Assembly: GCA_040390045.1 (NCBI GenBank)
Contig: JAZJZC010000001.1
Span: forward strand, 108,005 to 172,004
Direction: 5' to 3'
Source of the DNA: Patescibacteria group bacterium
GTDB lineage: Bacteria > Patescibacteriota > Minisyncoccia > Phycocordibacterales > SIBU01
DNA length: 64,000 nt
The notes under the pieces are model-generated. The model did no database searches. It was given only the letters and a program-made list of their open reading frames with translations, and was not told where the DNA came from. This document shows, one piece after another, positions 42,114 through 51,493 of the stretch. The position numbers were made by a program, and so were the translations under genes. The stretch's first letter is position 1. Every line of letters begins with the position of its first letter.

Positions 42114-42188
42114 TCCCCGGTGGCGCAGTGGTAGCGCAGTCGCCTGTTAAGCGATTGGTCGTAGGTTCGAATCCTACCCGGGGAGCCA
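42114..42188 (+). tRNA. tRNA-Asn (anticodon GTT), CCA encoded.
   Basis: Cloverleaf drawn by hand. Acceptor tccccgg/ccgggga, D-arm gcgc-agtggta-gcgc, anticodon stem gtcgc/gcgat with loop cTGTTaa, T-arm gtagg-ttcgaat-cctac, discriminator G, CCA. Confidence 0.85.
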
Positions 42189-43685
42189 AATAGGACTGTC
42201 AGCTAGTTCTAGGACTAGATTGAACGGAGAACGCAAGGTAAACCCTAGCGTTTTTTCGTTTACAGTCGGGTTCTGAAGTATGAAGTTAAGAAAGGCCCTT
42301 TGCTCGGCTGTTTCAGAACCCTCGAAGATTTGTCTTGCACGGCGGGCAACAGAAAGGACAGTGGCCACAGTAGTCTGATACTCGTAGTCGGCTTTTGTAT
42401 GTTCCTCTAGTTCGATGTTAAGAAGCTGCAACTTGTCCGCATACTCTTGATGCTTTCTGTCATAGGTTTCCTTAGTAATACTCTGGTCAAGGAAGGCCTC
42501 TAGTAATCTGTCATCCTTCATTTTGATTTGCTCGTACTCACTGCGGATGCGCTTAATCTGGGCCTTATGAAAGACAATTTCGGTTTCGGTGCTCTTCCGC
42601 AGTTCATCCACCAGCTCGCTCTGTACCTCGTCTGTAATGCCCTCAAACCGCTCCAGTACCTCGTATACAGGCTTGAGCAAGTCCTTTTCAGGTACATACA
42701 CTCTCTTGCAGATACCCTTAGCGTTGGTACAGGAATAATAGGTAAAAGTCAGCCCGCTTTTCTTGGTCTTGGTTTCGCCGCTCATAGAGCAACCACAGTT
42801 TTGACACTTCAGCAGACCCTTAAATATAAAATCTTTGGAGCGACCCATATAAGGCGACACTCGACGCTTCAAACGTATTTCTTGGCACTTATCAAAGAGT
42901 TCTTTATCAACCAAGCGCGGATATTTATGAGGATAGGAACCATACTTTTTCGACATAGCGATGCCACAATAAAAAGTATCCTTGAGGATATTTTCAACAC
43001 CACTCTTCGAGAGTTTGTTACCCTTGAGCGTTCGTAAACCAAGCTCGGTCATTTTGATACGGATAGTTTCAAGCGAGTGGTTTCCTGTCGCGTATAGCTC
43101 AAACATCTTTTGAATGAGATGTCCTCTTTCGGGGTCTATAATTATGTCCTTTCGTAATCTTTTTTCTACATCCAAAGACACATTCAAATAACCCAAACGA
43201 ACACTGCCCGTCCACTCACCACTTCTTCGTTTTTGTTCAAAAGCTCTTTTGACGTTGTCGCCGATTGCATCAGAGTAATACTTGGCCAAACCTAAGCTCA
43301 TACCAAATTGAAACTTCTCAACCGCAGACATCTGATTATTTATAACTTGCCCATCAGATACAAAGTGAAGCTCTATTTTGTCTGCTACCGCCATCTCGTA
43401 GAGGGTGCCAACCCTTTTATCAAAAACGCTTCTTGAAAGGCGGTCTACCTTATCAAAACAAACGGCAACTTTTTCTTTTTTCGCTACCTCTTCAACAGAC
43501 TCAACTAACTTATCAAACTCATCTCTCTTATCTTTGTACGCACTTTCGTCAAAGCTATACTTTTCTATAATCGTAAAGCCTTTCTTAGCACAATAATCGT
43601 TTATGCGCTTATCCTGCGCTGGCAAAGAATTGCCCGCTTCTTTTTGTTCCTCTGTTGATACTCGTGAGACGATTATTGCTTTCAT
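42174..43685 (-). CDS. Large serine recombinase (integrase).
   Basis: N-terminal resolvase domain MKAIIVSRVSTEEQ with the catalytic Ser, a recombinase domain, a zinc-ribbon region (CQNCGC...C) and a C-terminal coiled-coil. 503 aa. Confidence 0.8.
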   Translation of the reverse strand: MKAIIVSRVSTEEQKEAGNSLPAQDKRINDYCAKKGFTIIEKYSFDESAYKDKRDEFDKLVESVEEVAKKEKVAVCFDKVDRLSRSVFDKRVGTLYEMAVADKIELHFVSDGQVINNQMSAVEKFQFGMSLGLAKYYSDAIGDNVKRAFEQKRRSGEWTGSVRLGYLNVSLDVEKRLRKDIIIDPERGHLIQKMFELYATGNHSLETIRIKMTELGLRTLKGNKLSKSGVENILKDTFYCGIAMSKKYGSYPHKYPRLVDKELFDKCQEIRLKRRVSPYMGRSKDFIFKGLLKCQNCGCSMSGETKTKKSGLTFTYYSCTNAKGICKRVYVPEKDLLKPVYEVLERFEGITDEVQSELVDELRKSTETEIVFHKAQIKRIRSEYEQIKMKDDRLLEAFLDQSITKETYDRKHQEYADKLQLLNIELEEHTKADYEYQTTVATVLSVARRARQIFEGSETAEQRAFLNFILQNPTVNEKTLGFTLRSPFNLVLELADSPIWLPG

Positions 43686-43686
43686 A

Positions 43687-44454
43687 TTATTCTTTCGCTT
43701 TTGAGACGTAGTCTACAATTTTATCCCAATCCAACTGGTCTTTTGTGTAGAACAGCTCAATTAAATCTTTCGTCATTTCGTTGATTTTCTTTACGTAGGT
43801 TTCTTTGAAAGTATCGTCTCGTTTCTTCACTTCCTTATCGAGCGGCTTAATCAAGTTTCGATAAAGGTCTTTATCACCAGAAATTAATTCCCAAAAGTTT
43901 TGCCCGCAGAGTTTGGTGTAGTCAAGCTCACTATCTACCTTATGCTTTTTAAGAGGCACGTTATCTTTCCCATAAATACACCCGTTCACACAAACCATTT
44001 CTTGGGTCTTGCCTTCTTCGCGTAGGATACGCCGCGCTTCCTTAAGATTGCTTCTCATACCACTAATCTGGTCAGCGTTTCCCCAATTTGGGCCTGATTT
44101 TATGCCAACAATGTAGAGTTTGTTATCTCTTTCAAAGATTAAGTCCACACTCTTAAACTTATTCTCTTCAGCTTTTAGGCCCTTAAAAACAGTATGATTG
44201 ATATTGATAGCCAGATTCTCTAGCAGGTCTCCAAAAATTGTTTCCTCTTGTGAGGATAGAAACGCGTTTAATATATCGTTTACTAAGTCGCCAGCCGTTT
44301 GTATATTCTTGGCCTTAAATAGGTAGGGATTTTTTCTACGCATCACATCCTTAAGTTTTATGCTCTTCAGCTTCTCTATGCGTTTATCATAGAAAGGTTG
44401 AATCACATCTGATGCTACAAACTTATCCAATTCTTCGTAATTAATTTTTTTCAT
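43687..44454 (-). CDS. Putative type II restriction endonuclease, partner of the adjacent methyltransferase.
   Basis: No clear family match. It is tightly coupled to the methyltransferase gene (2-nt spacing). VDLIFERDNKLYIVGIKSG is a possible PD-(D/E)xK-like segment. Confidence 0.35.
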   Translation of the reverse strand: MKKINYEELDKFVASDVIQPFYDKRIEKLKSIKLKDVMRRKNPYLFKAKNIQTAGDLVNDILNAFLSSQEETIFGDLLENLAININHTVFKGLKAEENKFKSVDLIFERDNKLYIVGIKSGPNWGNADQISGMRSNLKEARRILREEGKTQEMVCVNGCIYGKDNVPLKKHKVDSELDYTKLCGQNFWELISGDKDLYRNLIKPLDKEVKKRDDTFKETYVKKINEMTKDLIELFYTKDQLDWDKIVDYVSKAKE

Positions 44455-44455
44455 A

Positions 44456-45328
44456 TTATTTTTGTGATTCTTGAAAGTTAGTAATTGATAATTCGTAGTA
44501 TTCAGGGAGTATCTCTATACCGATGGAACTTCGCCCTAATTGACCAGCAACAAGAGAGGTAGTGCCAGACCCTAAAAATGGGTCAAGCACGGTATCACCT
44601 GGTTTAGTAAAAAGTTTAATAAACCATTCGGGCAAGGATGCAGGAAAAGCCGCGCTATGGTTTTTATTTCCGCTTTCTGTCGCCATACTTACAACATTAG
44701 TCGGGTATGCCATATCCCGTCCGACCCAACTAGATACATTTTTTCCAAACCCGCTTCCGACTTTTGAATTATCTCTTCGCTTGTCAGTCTCACTTAAGTT
44801 TTTTAAGCGAGTTTTAGCCCAATCTCCCATTGGAACCATAACTTCATCTTGGTACATATTAAAGCTCTTATCCTTATTGAACTGCAACAATCGCTCCCAA
44901 GCATCTCGAAACCTGTTCGGCCATTTACCAGGGAAGCAGTTTTTCTTATGCCAGATAAACTCTTCAGTCCAAAGCCAGCCGTGCTTTCTCATTTCGATAA
45001 TTAACTCCATTACATACGTATGGCGCTCTCCGTTTGAAACCTTTTCTTTTATATTCAAAATAAACGTACCGTCTTTTTTAAGTACCCTCAATAACTCTTT
45101 TGATATTGGAGTAAACCACTCTACATATTTCTCTGGCTTTATACCGCCGTAAGTCTTGGCTCTCTGGTCTGCATAGGGAGGAGAAGTGACAATCAAGTCC
45201 ACTGAATTATCTGGCAATTCTTTGAGTGCCTCGACACAATCACCATTAATAAATCTTGCCTCAACAGATTTATCATTCGCAAAAAGCGTATTTGATTTTA
45301 TTACTTTTGCTTTCATATCTTTTTGCAT
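44456..45328 (-). CDS. DNA methyltransferase (N4-cytosine or N6-adenine, beta class).
   Basis: Motif IV DLIVTSPPY comes before motif I DPFLGSGTT. Confidence 0.8.
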   Translation of the reverse strand: MQKDMKAKVIKSNTLFANDKSVEARFINGDCVEALKELPDNSVDLIVTSPPYADQRAKTYGGIKPEKYVEWFTPISKELLRVLKKDGTFILNIKEKVSNGERHTYVMELIIEMRKHGWLWTEEFIWHKKNCFPGKWPNRFRDAWERLLQFNKDKSFNMYQDEVMVPMGDWAKTRLKNLSETDKRRDNSKVGSGFGKNVSSWVGRDMAYPTNVVSMATESGNKNHSAAFPASLPEWFIKLFTKPGDTVLDPFLGSGTTSLVAGQLGRSSIGIEILPEYYELSITNFQESQK

Positions 45329-45498
45329 TTCTTAAGAAAGGAATTGAACTCCTCTTTATCAATACGAAACTCTTTGCCAATCTTGTAGGCTTGTAACCGA
45401 CCTGCTTTTATATAGCGGTAAATTGTCATAATGTTTACCTCTAGTATCGTTGCCAGGTCTTCCGCTTTATAAAATGGTTTGTCTTTTTTTGTGTCCAT
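45313..45498 (-). CDS. Excisionase/AlpA-like HTH DNA-binding protein.
   Basis: 61 aa. LATILEVNIMTIYRYIKAGRLQAYKIGKEFRI is an excisionase-family HTH. Confidence 0.6.
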   Translation of the reverse strand: MDTKKDKPFYKAEDLATILEVNIMTIYRYIKAGRLQAYKIGKEFRIDKEEFNSFLKKCKKI

Positions 45499-45535: not shown

Positions 45536-46638
45536 TCAATTTGGCACCTGTGGATAATCCCCATACTTATACGTCTTAAACTCATTAAGCTTAGTGTCTA
45601 TTTGCATAACCCAATTCCTAATTCCATTCTTAGTAACAAACTCGCTAACCAGCTTTAAGTCATTGGCAATTCGGTACCAGGTTCGCTCTCCTGATTTTTT
45701 AGAGACTACCGAACGCAGCTCTCTTACTCCATCTTTCGCAAGAAGTAATAATCCTGCGAGATAGATTGCTTGCTTTGGCTTTATATTTTTCTGTTCCATA
45801 AAAATGCTTTGCAAAATATCTTTGTTACTTATGGAAATGGATAGTAGAGCACTGTTTCCTTCTTTGATAACTGCTTGCCAATAATGCGTCACTACCGCCT
45901 TACTCAATTTTGAGCTAAAGACATCTTGGAAAGTTGGATTTTGAGAATAGCCTAACTTCTTAAGTACGCTGTTCATTTTCTGTTTACGAACTAGCCGAAC
46001 TTCAAAACGGATTATTTCTGGCAACCTCTTAACACCTGAAAGGATGCTTCTCTGGTAATAGGTCTGGTCTCTATCAATAGCTCTTTTCTCGCTGGCGAGT
46101 ATGTCTGCGACCTTGTCATAGATAATGAACTCGTGAGATGCGGTATGCGCATACAAGCTTTGGCCGTCATTGGTATAGCGTGAGCGGGTAAAATCAAAAC
46201 CTTTCTAAGATTTACTTTATTTATTTCACTGATTAAATAATTTGTCGTATAGCCATCTTCTAGGTGGATATTCTTTGAGAAGTGCACTGAACTTACTACT
46301 GCATTTTTGATACTCTCTTCGGAGACAATGAGTCCCATTGTTTTAAGACGTTCTTGTAATGTACTGACTGCTTTAGGAAAATCAGCATCTTCTAATTCGT
46401 CCAGGTTATTAAGAAAGAGAAGTTTGGAAACTGAAAACTCTATCCTTACGTTTGCGTTCTGCTTAAACCACTTGCCGTAACTTGTAAGCCGTGGAAAGTA
46501 GTAGCCAGTTTTCAAATCGCTTTTAGAGGGATTCTTTATGTACCTAGAATAGCGCTCGGTTCGTGATTGTAAGTCCCAATCATCCGCGATATTTTGTATC
46601 TCGCTCCAGGGAATTGAAAGGCAGATAGAATCAATCAT
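45536..46638 (-). pseudogene. Rep_trans-like replication initiation protein interrupted by a frameshift (two overlapping ORFs, 46012..46638 and 45536..46156).
   Basis: The downstream part contains HEFIIYDK...RFEVRL, recalled from Rep_trans-type initiators. The two ORFs overlap by 145 nt in different frames. Confidence 0.4.
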
Positions 46639-47107
46639 TTTTCTCTCGTTGCTTCTTATAAAGATGCGGATTTATTCGTTTATCAACTTTTATGAGCAGC
46701 GCAAAAAAGCCGACAAGGTTGCGCTTGTCTTCAGGCGTTAATTTCTCCTGATTCTTTTTTAATTTTTCTTGCTTTTGTACGCTCAACATAAAAGCCCGCT
46801 CTTGGCTTGGCAGGTTTCCATTGGCGTGGCGACCCGCGAAGCCAAGAAAGGGCTTGCGTACATTTTGCCAATGAAATTACCGCCGTTATTTAAGAACGGA
46901 CTTTTGTTTGATAAACAAAAAATTGCCCGTACAATCGCTATCCTCTACTGGGCAGTTGGCAGATATTTCTGCGCTACTTCAGCAATTCGGATACGATTAT
47001 ATTGGGCAATTACGGTTGAGATGGTAGGCGCGGTTTTCTCTCCGCGGCTATGTAATTGATTACTTTAAGTGTAGCGAGACGAAACGGGCGCGTCAATAAA
47101 AAGCGCT

Positions 47108-47192: not shown

Positions 47193-48650
47193 TTGCTATC
47201 ACTGACAGAAATCGCTACAATTCACTTGACAATGATTTACAAAGAAGAAATCGAAGCAAAAGCAAAAGAGTTTGAAATCCATCCCTCGAATGTCGAAAGG
47301 GACTATGTTTTTGGATGGCTGCTTTTTGGCATCTTCACCGCGAGTGGACTGAAGGATAGAATCTTTCTCAAGGGCGGAAATGCCCTCCGAAAAGGCTACT
47401 TTGAGAATACTCGCTTTTCGAGCGACTTGGATTTTGGAATACCTGACGACATAAGCCAGGAAGAATTGCTGTCCGAAATAAATAAAGTCTGCGAGCTTGC
47501 TCAAGAGAAGTCGGGAGTGGTCTTTGTCAAAGATGACAACAAAGTTGAAGAAAAGTTTACCGCCAGTGAAGCGCCACTGCCTGACCTAAAGGTCTATGAG
47601 GTGCGGGTTTACTTCAAAGGTTTTAATGGAGAGTCCGACCATATAAAAATAAGAATCTCAATGGACGTCACGCGTTTCGATAAAGTTCTTCTACCTCTTC
47701 AGACTGTGAAGTTGATACATCCTTATTCAGATGCGGCAGACTTAGTTTGTGACATTCAGTGTATGAAGCTCGAAGAGATTATCGCTACAAAACTGAAATG
47801 CCTTATACAACGACAGCACGCGCCTGACCTTTTTGACTACGCTCACTCCATCAAACTTTTAGGCGGTACTTTGAACAAGGAAGAGGTGGTGGAGACCCTC
47901 GTCAAGAAAACAATTTTCAATCGTAACCCTTTCATCCTCAAAGGCATTTTGAACGGCACAGCGTTTACCTATTTCAGAACAGAGTGGGCTAAATCCGTTA
48001 TCTGCGCGAAACAACTTGCTATGAATGTTGAGGATGCCATCGCGGCTTTCATTGCCGACCTCGATATTCTTTTTGCGAACTACACCGATAACGGATTTGC
48101 TCAATTCGTCTACTTCAGTCCTGAAGTGCGAGCAAAGATTATGCACGCGGGGCGCACGCAGACGCTAATGAAAGTTCGGTATAAGGGCTATGACAGAATC
48201 ATTGAACCGTATTCTCTAAAATATCTTGAAAAGAAAAGTGGTGAGGCCCGTGAGTATTTCTATCTTTATAATTGTAGTGGTGGCGAGAGCAAACCAGATA
48301 CTCGTTGCTTTCTTCCTGAACGTATTGAGTCCATCGAAAACACCGAAGAGAAGTTTACGCCTCGGTTTCAAATTGAATTGTCAAAAGCAGGAGAGTTACC
48401 AGAAAATCGCTATCTCTTTGACCCAAACAGACCTACTCCTGCTCCACGGCCGCGTGTTTCGAGAAGTACCAGTCCAAGAGCGCCGCGTGCGCGCGGTTTT
48501 TCTAGTGGAATAAAGTACATATATAAATGCACTTCTTGCGGCAAGACATCCACGAAAACTACGATGGATGGAAATCTGCGTGCTCATAAGGCCCCTGGTG
48601 GTTATGCTTGTGGCGGCAGATTTGGTTATTACGTTCGGACAAAGTACTAA
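47193..48650 (+). CDS. AbiEii/DUF1814-type nucleotidyltransferase fused to a WYL-like domain and a C-terminal Zn-ribbon-like tail.
   Basis: N-terminal FLKGGNALRKGYFENTRFSSDLDFG, the AbiEii signature. Middle region KVRYKGYDRIIEPYSLKY...EYFYLYNC...RCFLPERIESIE, WYL-domain-like. C-terminal CTSCGK...H...C. Confidence 0.6.
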   Translation: MLSLTEIATIHLTMIYKEEIEAKAKEFEIHPSNVERDYVFGWLLFGIFTASGLKDRIFLKGGNALRKGYFENTRFSSDLDFGIPDDISQEELLSEINKVCELAQEKSGVVFVKDDNKVEEKFTASEAPLPDLKVYEVRVYFKGFNGESDHIKIRISMDVTRFDKVLLPLQTVKLIHPYSDAADLVCDIQCMKLEEIIATKLKCLIQRQHAPDLFDYAHSIKLLGGTLNKEEVVETLVKKTIFNRNPFILKGILNGTAFTYFRTEWAKSVICAKQLAMNVEDAIAAFIADLDILFANYTDNGFAQFVYFSPEVRAKIMHAGRTQTLMKVRYKGYDRIIEPYSLKYLEKKSGEAREYFYLYNCSGGESKPDTRCFLPERIESIENTEEKFTPRFQIELSKAGELPENRYLFDPNRPTPAPRPRVSRSTSPRAPRARGFSSGIKYIYKCTSCGKTSTKTTMDGNLRAHKAPGGYACGGRFGYYVRTKY

Positions 48651-49014
48651 AAAGTTTTCCCTCAAAAAAGCTCAACTGGGTTAGGGTGTCCCCCCAGCGC
48701 GAAAAAAGTCGAAACGGAAAATACCCACTACCCGAAAAGGCAAAACGAAGAGGGTTACACCCCTTTGGTATAACTCTGCATAACCTTGTTATGCTCTGTT
48801 ATACCGTGCGTAAGTAGCATAGCCAGATACTACCTGTGCTATGGCGGGTTAAAGTATCCGACAGGCATAGCACACCCTCACTTTACCCACACCCCGAAAA
48901 TACTTCGTATAGAACGCTACGTACTGGTCTATGCAAAGGATAGAATACCGCTAAACTGAAGTTCACTCTTGATACTTGCCCAGTTGAGAGTTCTGAACCT
49001 GTCCACGAGTGGGA

Positions 49015-49048
49015 GCAAAACAAACGCCGAAAGGCGTTTTTGTTTTGC
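49015..49048. repeat. Strong GAAA-tetraloop hairpin in the element-end noncoding region.
   Basis: gcaaaacaaacgcc-gaaa-ggcgtttttgttttgc. Confidence 0.5.
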
Positions 49049-49219
49049 TCACCGGAGGAAGCGCAAATCGCTTCCGTGTAGGATTCGAAAACCTTCTCCC
49101 GTATCCGCCGCGGCGGATGGGAAAGGTGTACCGTCTACAGGTGTCTATCACAAACGATAGACCTGACCCTGTAAGGTTCGAAATTCCTACCCACAACCTC
49201 TTTATGCTACAATTTTTAA

Positions 49220-49702
49220 ATGAAAACGTATCTAATCGAAGGTTTGTCTGGTACCGGTAAAACAACAGTCTGCGCAGAATTAAATAAAAGGAATTACACA
49301 GCCGTAGATGCCGATGAGGTATTTGCTCATTTTGTTGACCCTAAAACTGGTTTGCATAGTGATGAAAAGACTACACACTGGATGTGGGAGGAAGAAAAAT
49401 TTAATACTATCGTTAAACAGGAAAGGGACGGACAATTATTTGTGTGTGGAGGCGCCACTAATCAGGAAAATTTTAAACATCATTTTGATAAAATTTTTAC
49501 TCTCCATGTTGATGATAACGTTCTGAAAGATAGGCTGTTACATAGAACTAACAATGACTACGGTAAGGACCCGAAGGAATTAGAACAACAACTAGAGTGG
49601 AACAAAGGTGCTGTACAGCATTCAAGACACAGAGGAACAACTTTGATCGACGCAACCAAGCCAATAAGTGACGTGGTGGATGAAATACTAAAAAATCTTT
49701 AA
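49220..49702 (+). CDS. P-loop nucleotide/nucleoside kinase-like protein.
   Basis: Walker A GLSGTGKTT at the N-terminus. 160 aa. Confidence 0.5.
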   Translation: MKTYLIEGLSGTGKTTVCAELNKRNYTAVDADEVFAHFVDPKTGLHSDEKTTHWMWEEEKFNTIVKQERDGQLFVCGGATNQENFKHHFDKIFTLHVDDNVLKDRLLHRTNNDYGKDPKELEQQLEWNKGAVQHSRHRGTTLIDATKPISDVVDEILKNL

Positions 49703-49768
49703 ATTAGATTTGGAAACTTAGTTTCCAAAATACTAGCTGACCCTATTCTCCTTGTATCCCCTTGTGAT

Positions 49769-50350
49769 ATGATTTTTATTATGTCTGAAAATCCATCACC
49801 ACTTGAAAAACCTCCTCAAGAAAATATACCCTATCCTGAAATGATAGCTGGACAAAAGCTAGAGACATTAATGAGCCCTGAGTTCAGAACATTTGCTGTG
49901 CGATTTGTAAATTTCCAACAATACAAAGAATATCTTGAAGCGGGCATGGGAGATTCCGGCGGTCGTGGGTTTCAAGCCTACGGAGAAGTTGTAGGTGTTA
50001 TGGACCAATCATTTCCTGAATTTTTAAAGGAATCCTCAAAAGATTGGGGTGAATCCATTCATGAATATACAGACTGGCCTCAATCTCGTGTTGGCATAAA
50101 AGTGCATGAACAGCTAACAGAAATTTTTAGAAATGCTCACACTGAAGCACTGAAATCGGTCGGTAGCAAGGATGAATTGAGAGAAAGATCGCTTGAAATA
50201 TTTCGTGATATTATTTTAAAAAAAGCAAGATCGATTAGAGAAAAAAAGGAAAGTCCTGGATATGATGGTGCGGATGAACGTGGAGCTTTAAACAGAAATC
50301 CTCCTGACTCTTCTTTAGAAAGTAGTCGCTGTATCAAAACTAACGAGTAA
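49769..50350 (+). CDS. Hypothetical protein.
   Basis: 193-aa ORF in a same-strand run. No motif recognised. Confidence 0.4.
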   Translation: MIFIMSENPSPLEKPPQENIPYPEMIAGQKLETLMSPEFRTFAVRFVNFQQYKEYLEAGMGDSGGRGFQAYGEVVGVMDQSFPEFLKESSKDWGESIHEYTDWPQSRVGIKVHEQLTEIFRNAHTEALKSVGSKDELRERSLEIFRDIILKKARSIREKKESPGYDGADERGALNRNPPDSSLESSRCIKTNE

Positions 50351-50363
50351 TGATTCTGGATGG

Positions 50364-50822
50364 TTGTATGATGGTAGGAATCTTAATGAATTCTTAGAGG
50401 GCGAAAAGACAAACTGGGATTGGCTATATAAAAAGCGTGACCCTAAGCCCCCTTTTCCCGAAGAAATGTTGCGGACAATATACAAATTTGTACACACACC
50501 TAGGGATATTACCCCTGCGGAATTAAAGGTTGTTTTTACCTATCTTTCAGATCTTAATATCGAGGGTGAACTTCAATATGACGTGGCAGTAATTTTTGAT
50601 CCAAGTGTTATGAAAGATTTTTCCAAGTCAGAACATTCCGCAAATCGTTTCTGGTCAGATGTAATTCCCAGAGGAGGAGAACAAAAAATCATGGGTGCTG
50701 TAGCCCTTCGGTCAGATCGTGAACTTGTAGAAAAAATTATTCACACCCCCAACAACAACACAAATCTATCCCATCCTGTGTTTGATTCCAAAGGAAACAT
50801 TAGATATCCCCTTGGGAAGTAA
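50364..50822 (+). CDS. Hypothetical protein.
   Basis: 152-aa ORF, 14 nt after the previous gene. Confidence 0.4.
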   Translation: MYDGRNLNEFLEGEKTNWDWLYKKRDPKPPFPEEMLRTIYKFVHTPRDITPAELKVVFTYLSDLNIEGELQYDVAVIFDPSVMKDFSKSEHSANRFWSDVIPRGGEQKIMGAVALRSDRELVEKIIHTPNNNTNLSHPVFDSKGNIRYPLGK

Positions 50823-50977
50823 TCTATTTACAAAGGTTCGACCTTTGTACTTGGAATTCCCACTCAAATTGACAAAACAACCTTTACACTCTAACCTCAA
50901 ACAAGTTGTTAGGGCTGTTCCCTAACACTTTCAACGCTCAGCAGAGCATAAAAGAGCAGTAGCTCTAGAAAGGTAGT

Positions 50978-51493
50978 ATGAAAAGCGTGGTTTCGCAGTA
51001 TCGCAATAGTTACATTCCAACAAATGACGAAGGTCGAGTCCTCGGGAAATTTTTCAAAGAATTTCCGTGGCTTTGGGCCTTATCATCTGACTGGTCCGGT
51101 CTCCTACTCATAAAAGTGCACAGGGCAGATCCTGGAATCGTTGAGGAGAACTTAGGGTGCCCATCATTCGCTTCGACGGCTGGGATTGCAACCACAACCT
51201 TTTGGCTCAAGGCTTGGGGTCGTGATTGTAACCTCAACTTGTGGGAATCTGTTAAACGGATTGAAACGGACGATTGGAATCGGGAAAAGGGCGAGAATCT
51301 GACGTATCTGGTCCGCAAAGCGTTTCGTCAGTTGCCTCCGGAATGTGAACTTGAGTTTCTAATCAGTAAGAAAGAATTCAGGGGGTATACCTCATCTGCA
51401 ATGCATGACGGTCCATGCCCTAGCCATGAGTACAACATCTTCAAGCCACCTCTGGGAGACAAAGGTTTTCGCGGTTTTGCTGGTGTGAAGTAG
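50978..51493 (+). CDS. Hypothetical protein.
   Basis: 171-aa ORF. The upstream region shares a CGACCTTTGTA...TTGACA motif with the next gene. Confidence 0.4.
   Translation: MKSVVSQYRNSYIPTNDEGRVLGKFFKEFPWLWALSSDWSGLLLIKVHRADPGIVEENLGCPSFASTAGIATTTFWLKAWGRDCNLNLWESVKRIETDDWNREKGENLTYLVRKAFRQLPPECELEFLISKKEFRGYTSSAMHDGPCPSHEYNIFKPPLGDKGFRGFAGVK

Follow-up and report, generated by a model that had tools for sequence, protein, structure and literature searches.

An AbiEii–WYL–zinc-finger protein from a lineage without AbiEi, carried on a tRNA-Asn-integrated island of a Patescibacteria genome

The 64,000-nucleotide stretch of Patescibacteria DNA analysed here, the whole of which is referred to as the window, contains a gene for a 472-residue protein in which an AbiEii/DUF1814 nucleotidyltransferase domain is followed by a divergent WYL domain, a linker and a C-terminal CCHC zinc finger. 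It lies on an island that also carries a large serine recombinase, a type II restriction-modification pair and an excisionase-like protein (Table 1). It is very probable that the gene belongs to the AbiEii(DUF1814)–WYL–CCHC-finger family, that within this family it represents a divergent and horizontally spread lineage which lacks the AbiEi antitoxin, and that it is cargo of the island with its type II restriction-modification system. Residue numbers throughout follow the 472-residue protein.

Table 1. Positions in the window of the gene, of the domains and motifs that it encodes, and of the annotated island genes and flanking signals.
Feature	Position	Strand	Remarks
AbiEii–WYL–CCHC-finger protein gene, 472 residues	47232..48650	+	corrected ATG start; stop codon 48648-48650; translation verified
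Promoter-like TTGCTA, 17-nt spacer, TACAAT (sigma-70-like)	47193..47221	+	consensus match only; 10 nt 5' of the ATG
AbiEii/DUF1814 nucleotidyltransferase domain, MenT-like fold	47232..48086	+	residues 1-285
Nucleotidyltransferase motif I, G48-G49 within 'LKGGNALRK'	47373..47378	+	invariant; aligned to MenT4 'KGGTSLRK'
R61-F62-S63-S64-D65-L66-D67, catalytic DxD and putative acceptor S63	47412..47432	+	aligned to MenT4 'GRFSTDLDF'
Nucleotidyltransferase motif III, aspartate D145	47664..47666	+	invariant
Nucleotidyltransferase motif IV, K187-L-K-C-L-I-Q-R194-Q-H-A-P-D199-L-F-D202	47790..47837	+	K187, K189, R194, D199 and D202 invariant
Divergent WYL domain, one helix then five-strand Sm-like barrel	48114..48359	+	residues 295-376
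Conserved, predicted-disordered segment 'PRFQIELSKAGELPENRYLFDPNRP'	48360..48434	+	residues 377-401; stretch after 'EL' specific to the AbiEi-less lineage
Pro/Arg-rich basic linker	48435..48503	+	residues 402-424; 6 K+R, 0 D+E, 5 P; predicted disordered
C-terminal CCHC zinc finger	48504..48647	+	residues 425-472; resembles C2H2/BED fingers; model pLDDT 78-90
Terminator-like hairpin then T-run	49022..49039	+	consensus match only; ~370 nt past the stop codon; bidirectional; possible transcript end
tRNA-Asn (GTT), probable island integration site	42114..42188	+	ARAGORN; Rfam RF00005, 72 bits
Large serine recombinase, island integrase	42174..43685	-	Pfam Resolvase, Recombinase and Zn_ribbon_recom
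EcoO109I-family endonuclease (type II restriction-modification pair)	43687-44454	-	PF14511, E=3.2e-74
N6/N4 DNA methyltransferase (type II restriction-modification pair)	44456-45328	-	PF01555, E=5.6e-46; PADLOC MTase_II
HTH_17, excisionase-like small DNA-binding protein	45313..45498	-	PF12728, E=5e-12; PHROG 66 'excisionase and transcriptional regulator', E=2e-8

An earlier reading of the locus, made from the sequence alone, had taken the gene to be the open reading frame 47193..48650 on the forward strand. This frame is present, and encodes 485 residues from a TTG codon, but translation almost certainly begins with the ATG at 47232, because a database protein from a Patescibacteria metagenome-assembled genome (P0001) is identical over the 472 residues, because 35 of 35 aligned homologues have the N-terminus 'MI.K.EIE' at the position of this ATG, and because the promoter-like site falls within the 13 extra codons of the TTG-started frame. 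The strings which the sequence-only reading had quoted, namely KGGNALRKGYFENTRFSSDLDFG, VRYKGYDRIIEPYSLKY, EYFYLYNC and RCFLPERIESIE, are all found in the translation, as are the Pro/Arg-rich linker and the C-x2-C...H...C tail.

Profile matches and a predicted fold show the N-terminal domain to be an apparently intact nucleotidyltransferase of the MenT/AbiEii type. Its earlier identification as AbiEii is confirmed by a profile search, in which the protein matches Pfam PF08843 with 83.2 bits against a cutoff of 22.5 (E=3.6e-23) and the PADLOC AbiEii model PDLC02304 with E=5.8e-49. The AlphaFold2 model, which was built from 35 homologues and has a mean predicted local distance difference test score (pLDDT) of 75.6, places the nucleotidyltransferase at residues 1 to about 285, followed by a helix at 297-309, five β-strands at 311-374, a stretch with pLDDT below 50 at 380-424 and a small β-rich tail at 428-471. 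The best structural matches of the full model in a Foldseek search are MenT4 (6y56) and MenT3/TglT (7c46 and 6j7r), with E≈4e-7 and a probability of 1.00; DriD, CapW and BrxR come next in rank, and TdT, a terminal transferase of the Pol-β fold, is a weaker match (E≈0.03). All four nucleotidyltransferase motifs (GG, DxD, a third acidic residue and K…R…D..D) are present and are invariant in the 35 homologues, and R61, S63, D65 and D67 are in addition invariant in the clade of relatives paired with AbiEi that is described below. Motif IV aligns to 'KL....R.KARDLFD' of JHP933 (4ok0) and to 'EKVRALAERTRPRDLYD' of the paired clade. A second PADLOC model named AbiEii, PDLC02317, which has 396 positions, is matched by the window protein in two stretches (E=1e-44); this model may already cover a WYL-containing subclass of AbiEii, though its PADLOC label is AbiEii only.

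One residue of this domain, S63, bears on regulation. The antitoxins AbiEi and MenA induce the auto-phosphorylation of a Ser or Thr located before the DxD strand, and do so via a loop inserted in the active site (PMC11375011; bioRxiv 10.64898/2026.01.19.700257); the acceptor is S78 in MenT3 (PMC11375011) and T65 in AbiEii (bioRxiv 10.64898/2026.01.19.700257). As judged by sequence motif rather than by structural superposition, S63 is the equivalent of the phospho-acceptors in MenT3 (R76-x-S78-K79-D80) and AbiEii (R63-S64-T65). The idea that the acceptor has been lost, which a comparison of 'KGGNA' with the 'KGGTS' of MenT4 might suggest, was rejected, because the acceptor is the Ser/Thr before the DxD strand, which is here the invariant S63.

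The module that follows the nucleotidyltransferase is judged from its fold and its relatives to be a genuine but divergent WYL domain. The window protein has no match to PF13280 at the curated threshold (Pfam, NCBIfam), its isolated C-terminal half gives no WYL match against profiles even at E≤10, a sequence-profile search of the Protein Data Bank finds no WYL protein, and the comparison with a single BrxR sequence is not significant (probability 0.3%). When its profile is compared locally with that of the BrxR family, hhalign gives a modest E=0.0054 in the structurally expected register, and weak sub-threshold matches to PF13280 are found in 19 of 72 more divergent family members (best E=0.0018). 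In a separate model of residues 283-405 the pLDDT is 85-95 across the core, and the barrel is a five-strand, Sm-like β-barrel of the WYL type that is nearer to WYL structures than to generic Sm/Hfq. A homologous protein of the paired clade, from Rhizobium, passes the PF13280 threshold with 27.5 bits against 21.8. The WYL domain that had been proposed at about residues 300-400 is thus without a profile match in this particular sequence, but the assignment stands, because the evidence of the fold and the transitive homology override the absence of such a match.

Between the barrel and the linker lies the conserved segment, in which the AlphaFold2 model has a pLDDT below 50 from residue 380 and in which E382, K385, G387, E388, P390, F396, D397 and P401 do not vary among the 35 homologues of the close family. 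A core resembling '[SC][KR][AS]GE' is found in 69 of the 76 loci of the AbiEi-less (solo) lineage that were compared, among them members with no more than 37-49% identity; 4-5 residues further on, Y[LF][FG] usually follows. The linker varies in length and sequence in both clades. The ligands of the finger, C433-x2-C436-x15-H452-x7-C460, are invariant in the 35 homologues and conserved in the paired clade. Among the 72 relatives, sub-threshold finger matches are to zf-C2H2 in 19, to zf-BED in 15 (best E=6e-4) and to zf-C2HC_2 in 10, while the tail of the window protein itself gives sub-threshold matches to Zn_ribbon_SprT (E=0.007) and to eukaryotic C2H2 fingers (E≈0.02). The tail is a zinc-binding C-x2-C...H...C module, as had been noticed, but not the two-knuckle zinc ribbon for which it had been taken: it has one CxxC knuckle and a CCHC arrangement of the C2H2/BED type.

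A tblastn search of plasmids leads to distant relatives of 474-482 residues, which are AbiEii proteins with an overlapping upstream gene annotated as an AbiEi antitoxin. Examples are WP_283054706.1 with the AbiEi WP_283054705.1 on plasmid pCB3171_2 of Rhizobium sp. CB3171, and WP_100922825.1 with WP_100922826.1 on plasmid pTs417 of Thiodictyon syntrophicum. The Rhizobium toxin matches AbiEii with E=6.6e-37, contains the above-threshold WYL domain already mentioned and ends in the same finger, while the gene upstream of it is above the AbiEi_1 threshold. The toxin aligns with the window protein from end to end, with 27% identity and E=1e-42, across 'YQGTTRRIEPYSL' versus 'YKGYDRIIEPYSL' and the finger. 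These relatives constitute a sister clade with at least 7,937 matches among 8,000 candidates scored, nearly all of which carry precomputed PF08843 and PF13280 annotations, and some of whose entries are named 'WYL domain-containing protein'. In each of the seven sister-clade loci examined there is an overlapping upstream gene of 215-296 residues, whose best match in Pfam is AbiEi_1 or AbiEi_4. Genes found around these paired loci include SduA_C (Shedu) and Fic genes at one locus (L096) and HipA and TIR_2 genes at another (L097).

The sister clade and the window lineage share the three-module architecture of 470-490 residues, the nucleotidyltransferase motifs including R-F-S-x-D-L-D, the 'IEPYSL' core of the WYL domain, 'PR..VEL', and the CCHC finger 'Y.Y.C..C.K.F......L..HK...G..C.G'. 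They differ in the C-terminal strand of the WYL domain, which reads as the classical 'HRSYRVDRI' in the paired clade but as 'PGI[RK]xF..E.IES' in the solo lineage, where there is also an insertion near the strand equivalent to WYL; the window protein has 'PGIRCF..E.IES' and its WYL is undetectable by profile, whereas the sister-clade WYL passes the Pfam threshold. They differ also in the segment after 'EL', where the paired clade has 'TPSGPVSIPP' followed by a variable linker, without KAGE, in place of the '[SC][KR][AS]GE' core. Finally, an overlapping AbiEi accompanies the toxin at every one of the sister-clade loci examined but at none of 85 loci of the window lineage. The distinguishing mark of the lineage is therefore the missing AbiEi, and the fusion itself is ordinary and already catalogued: Makarova et al. 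2014 name an 'AbiGII-like nucleotidyltransferase (DUF1814)' as one of the enzymatic partners of WYL in fusion proteins (PMC4012209). The earlier view that the fusion is unusual is not borne out, given that publication and the size of the annotated sister clade. The text of the supplement to that paper does not list the fusion proteins, and no other paper combining the terms DUF1814/AbiEii and WYL was found in the literature searched.

The full 472-residue architecture of the window protein is found at 100% coverage in more than 1,000 database clusters, too many for it to be a product of chance, and the lineage occurs with intact full-length open reading frames in 145 species-level genomes. Its hosts belong to Patescibacteria, Omnitrophota, Bdellovibrionota, Planctomycetota, Bacteroidota, Acidobacteriota, Verrucomicrobiota, Pseudomonadota and Actinomycetota, with cultured representatives in Rhizobium, Roseovarius, Seohaeicola and Blastococcus and on plasmids of Sinorhizobium and Sphingomonas; no members were found on sequenced phages. 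Among the cultured hosts are Rhizobium leguminosarum CC278f, Roseovarius azorensis DSM 100674 and Sinorhizobium mexicanum with its plasmid pEmeITTGR7a. Identity over the full length is 63-83% across many phyla among the 35 aligned homologues, and conservation combined with spread of this kind is, on the evidence of the sequences, a sign of strong purifying selection and of repeated successful transfer. Full-length homologues at 44-68% identity are also present on contigs of 3.5-9 kb in metagenome-assembled genomes assigned to Methanosarcinales (L022) and Promethearchaeota (L056), and these archaeal occurrences could stem either from transfer between domains or from contigs placed in the wrong bin.

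A profile of the WYL module retrieves only 286 clusters at 50% identity, and the inspected matches are AbiEii-fused proteins or truncated pieces of them, save for two: P0234, which has junk sequence after the WYL module, and P0205. The latter, of 478 residues, begins with a genuine TIR_2 domain (E=5.8e-20), behind which come the C-terminal helices of the AbiEii domain and then the WYL module; after this module it looks out of frame and, as in P0234, has no finger. It is either an effector swap, with TIR in place of the nucleotidyltransferase ahead of the same WYL region, or a chimera of gene calling or assembly. A shorter class of about 385-413 residues ends directly after the WYL module. The existence of split or standalone WYL-finger proteins was considered and rejected, the short representatives being N-terminally truncated and still including the end of the AbiEii helical region.

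The absence of a separate upstream AbiEi, which the sequence-only reading had reported for this gene, holds for the window and for the lineage. The open reading frames neighbouring the gene in the window have no AbiEi match in Pfam, PADLOC or NCBIfam. A hidden Markov model of AbiEi was built from the AbiEi proteins of the seven sister-clade loci and was run with filters off; its positive controls score 408-499 bits, and it finds nothing among 9,958 open reading frames from the 85 lineage loci and the whole window (best E=0.29). No AbiEi is among the 25 Pfam families listed for 78 upstream neighbours, and on plasmids of Sinorhizobium, Sphingomonas and Streptomyces no gene adjoining a member of the lineage, whether full-length or of the short class, is annotated as AbiEi. 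Two other kinds of partner were rejected as well: a conserved upstream operon partner, since tightly spaced upstream genes are unrelated singletons in 47 of 56 cases, and a small open reading frame or RNA antitoxin in the flanks, since these are unconserved among relatives, contain no relevant tandem repeats and have no Rfam match.

The loss of AbiEi, taken together with a WYL domain that has diverged below Pfam detection and no longer has the classical RxDRI, is what would be expected if the gene were an orphaned remnant of an AbiE operon, its toxin inactive or re-purposed and without a role in defence. This is very improbable, since the 35 homologues, which come from many phyla, agree without exception in all catalytic motifs, in the ligands of the finger and at many WYL positions, and the intact frames in at least 145 species-level genomes indicate selection and repeated transfer, not decay.

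The neighbourhoods of the lineage are heterogeneous. Within ±5 kb at 81 loci, only three kinds of neighbour recur: large serine recombinases, at 15 loci, DNA methyltransferases, at 9, and small HTH proteins, at 8. Upstream and nearby genes include defence genes (DarT1-NADAR, a Pycsar-type TIR, restriction-modification, AAA_21, PLD and SMODS), recombinases and housekeeping genes, and the setting is thus one of mobile elements and defence islands. On the plasmid of Streptomyces sp. NBC_01455 (L088, 2478-5188) a SMODS nucleotidyltransferase is directly 5' of a short-class member, and on the plasmid of Sinorhizobium mexicanum (L087, 4953-7108) a DUF3800-like gene is 14 bp 3' of a family member. 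Because the neighbours are so heterogeneous and the flanks unconserved, the gene is concluded to move as a self-contained unit. The alternative that it is a core gene of one specific serine-recombinase element was rejected: a recombinase is found within ±8 kb in only 19 of the 85 loci, and no other gene of the window island is conserved there, which identifies the toxin gene as cargo.

In the window itself, the toxin gene is very probably stand-alone cargo on a serine-recombinase island which is integrated at tRNA-Asn and carries a type II restriction-modification system. The last 15 nt of the tRNA-Asn gene overlap the 3' end of the serine recombinase frame on the opposite strand, and the island thus directly abuts the tRNA gene. 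The second boundary of the island was not located, as the window contains neither another attachment-site-like copy of the 3' end of the tRNA nor a convincing direct repeat; this is no argument against the island, since serine recombinases need only very short crossover identity. The proposal that the gene sits in an integrated element is upheld by the tRNA, the recombinase, the restriction-modification pair and the HTH_17 gene, but its placement next to the restriction-modification pair is not exact: the pair is about 2 kb away, with three open reading frames between.

Several further observations concern the genes around the toxin. Between the excisionase-like gene and the toxin gene, two reverse-strand frames in different reading frames, 46012-46638 (208 residues) and 45536-46156 (206 residues), overlap by about 145 nt; neither has a Pfam, PADLOC or NCBIfam match, a weak match to phrog_7059 (profile length 339, E=8e-4) is seen for the upstream frame alone, and the pair resembles a gene of about 360 residues split by a frameshift, being either a pseudogene or an assembly error. 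For a Lys-rich frame of 52 residues at 46631-46789 on the reverse strand, which is divergent from the toxin gene, tblastn finds a single match (E=2e-7, 50% identity over 36 residues); this lies directly 3' of the toxin homologue on the contig binned to Methanosarcinales (L022:7214-7321) and may reflect chance or a small island-associated gene. The approximately 570 bp 3' of the toxin gene (48651-49219) contain no convincing open reading frame, a length which seems long for a Patescibacteria genome; they hold several hairpins, including one at 48748-48794 and the terminator-like one, give no match in a search of Rfam, and are conserved only over the first 85 bp or so and solely with the closest relative (L006, 78% identity). 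Beyond them, at 49220-51493 on the forward strand, are an AAA_18/kinase-like gene of 160 residues and frames of 193, 152 and 171 residues, of which the first two have no match in Pfam or PHROGs and the last has none in PHROGs.

The characterised relatives suggest how such a gene might act and be controlled. MenT toxins add nucleotides at tRNA acceptor ends and block translation. All DUF1814 toxins characterised so far (AbiEii, MenT1/3/4, RlegT, SanaT and SdenT) are neutralised by a separate antitoxin, antitoxin-induced auto-phosphorylation having recently been argued to be the unifying mechanism (PMC11375011; bioRxiv 10.64898/2026.01.19.700257). In the AbiE system, D85 and E86 of the acidic loop of AbiEi contact R63, T65, R117 and K252 of AbiEii (bioRxiv 10.64898/2026.01.19.700257). 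The WYL domains of DriD, CapW and PafBC sense single-stranded DNA, and CapW contacts it through S144, R164, R168 and R184, with the 3' end of the DNA docked (PMC11662680).

One way to account for a solitary enzyme of this type that travels widely is that it is not toxic to its host. It could be a terminal-transferase-like enzyme which the WYL domain and the finger recruit to the 3' ends of single-stranded DNA or RNA in replication intermediates of phages or plasmids, and which would need no antitoxin; the solo gene, its wide horizontal spread in defence and mobile islands, the recognition of single-stranded DNA by WYL domains and the presence of TdT among the weaker structural matches are all compatible with this. 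Such a role is nonetheless improbable, because the nearest relatives by both sequence and structure are tRNA-modifying toxins, because the sister clade has the same extension and keeps its antitoxin, which implies an enzyme of a self-toxic type, and because the similarity to TdT is weak and comes from the nucleotidyltransferase fold that both have in common.

The mechanism that is put forward here, tentatively and with rather less than even confidence, is that the solo nucleotidyltransferase is held off in cis by the C-terminal region of the same protein and switched on by the binding of nucleic acid; for the identity of the gene and this mechanism taken together, a probability of about 0.5 seems appropriate. 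By homology, and given the conserved motifs and the fold, the active enzyme would attach nucleotides to the acceptor ends of tRNA and bring translation to a halt, with abortive infection or growth arrest as the result. Since no antitoxin is present, the enzyme would have to be restrained in cis, and the best candidate for this restraint would be the diverged WYL barrel together with the acidic and aromatic 'ELSKAGE…Y[LF]F' segment, which might occupy or reshape the active site in the way that the acidic loop of AbiEi does in trans, and might possibly promote the auto-phosphorylation of S63. Single-stranded nucleic acid produced by infection or DNA damage would then bind to the WYL domain and the finger and release the nucleotidyltransferase. 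The idea of regulation in cis is prompted by the prevalence of the KAGE core in the solo loci and its absence from the paired clade, by the precedent of the AbiEi loop and by the sensing of single-stranded DNA by WYL domains. Self-regulation in this general sense is plausible. The more specific proposal that the lineage is a single-polypeptide defence system of the AbiE type, in which the segment and the remodelled WYL domain have taken over the job of the antitoxin in cis, by gating the active site or by S63 auto-phosphorylation, and in which nucleic acid is the switch, is possible but must be considered unlikely.

Several observations weigh against regulation in cis. The conservation of S63 could reflect catalysis instead of regulation, S78 of MenT3 having been described as catalytic (PMC11375011). 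When the CapW contacts are mapped via the hhalign register (E=0.0054) rather than by structural superposition, S144 corresponds to G319, R164 to R/K340, R168 to Y344 and R184 to R/K358, so that about two of four are kept, and the arginines of the classical 'RxDRI' are lost in the WYL domain of the window lineage; for these two reasons the WYL ligand may differ, or binding may be lost. The window, at 64 kb, is the part of the genome that was searched, and an antitoxin elsewhere in the genome is possible. Finally, the extension of WYL domain and finger coexists with AbiEi in the far larger sister clade, which argues that its primary role is not the replacement of the antitoxin, and the suggestion in the sequence-only reading that the fusion stands in for AbiEi is contradicted by the same loci.

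That the extension is present with or without AbiEi is, however, what would be expected of catalytic machinery, and the WYL domain and the finger might in both clades recruit the substrate (a tRNA 3' end, or single-stranded RNA or DNA) rather than act as a sensor or switch. Control in the absence of AbiEi would then lie elsewhere, in low or inducible expression, in the modification of S63 by a kinase or phosphatase of the host, or in an unlinked antitoxin. Sm-like and WYL folds bind single-stranded nucleic acids, as in the docking of a DNA 3' end by CapW (PMC11662680); the WYL domain of the Pif1 fusion is a precedent for an accessory module that binds single-stranded DNA (bioRxiv 10.1101/163188); C2H2/BED-type fingers and a basic Pro/Arg linker are typical nucleic-acid binders; and the known substrates of MenT are tRNA acceptor ends. 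Substrate recruitment is somewhat unlikely to be the explanation all the same, although it is the strongest of the rivals: canonical AbiEii and MenT act on tRNA without such an extension, and recruitment leaves unexplained both the tolerance of antitoxin loss by an enzyme with intact catalytic residues and the conserved 'KAGE…YLF' motif that is specific to the lineage.

Whichever way the control is exerted, the solo lineage, which keeps the catalytic site and the acceptor serine without an antitoxin in many phyla, including the genome-reduced Patescibacteria, constitutes a natural experiment on control in cis, and the paired and solo clades provide a ready comparison for the role of the extension. 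What is new here is the AbiEi-less lineage with a WYL domain invisible to Pfam, the annotated AbiEii–WYL family being already known. Defence finders that require an AbiEi and AbiEii pair will miss the solo lineage as a system, and Pfam is blind to its WYL domain. Were the single-polypeptide reading true, post-translational control of a toxin would have been shown for a WYL domain for the first time, and the lineage would provide the first DUF1814 toxin that works without an antitoxin.

The two-gene AbiE systems, which were classed as type IV toxin-antitoxin systems and have recently been reclassified as type VII, are recognised by an adjacent AbiEi/COG5340 gene that usually overlaps the toxin start, and no such gene adjoins the window gene. 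The canonical systems, AbiEi-AbiEii of S. agalactiae and L. lactis and MenA with MenT1, MenT3 or MenT4 of M. tuberculosis, share the DUF1814 nucleotidyltransferase fold and motifs with the window protein. Their toxins, however, have about 290 residues and lack any C-terminal extension, and each is accompanied without exception by a neighbouring antitoxin, which induces auto-phosphorylation, while the window protein has about 185 extra residues, consisting of the WYL domain, the linker and the finger, and no antitoxin gene.

The regulators BrxR, CapW, DriD and PafBC bear a winged helix-turn-helix, whereas the window protein has none and its WYL domain is fused to an enzyme rather than to a DNA-binding domain; nor is a WCX dimerisation domain detected in it. 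Relative to the WYL sensors of single-stranded DNA, two of the four contact positions are changed in the hhalign register (Ser to Gly319 and Arg to Tyr344), and the window protein has the invariant acidic residues E325 and E341. Further parallels in architecture are the enzyme–WYL fusions listed by Makarova et al. 2014 (PMC4012209), such as Cas3–WYL and the Pif1 helicase–WYL of Thermotoga elfii, in which the fused WYL serves as an accessory module that binds single-stranded DNA (bioRxiv 10.1101/163188). In these proteins, as in the one described here, the WYL domain is appended to an enzyme that acts on nucleic acid, but the window protein is a nucleotidyltransferase toxin rather than a helicase or nuclease, and it adds to the fusion a zinc finger and a linker motif specific to its lineage.

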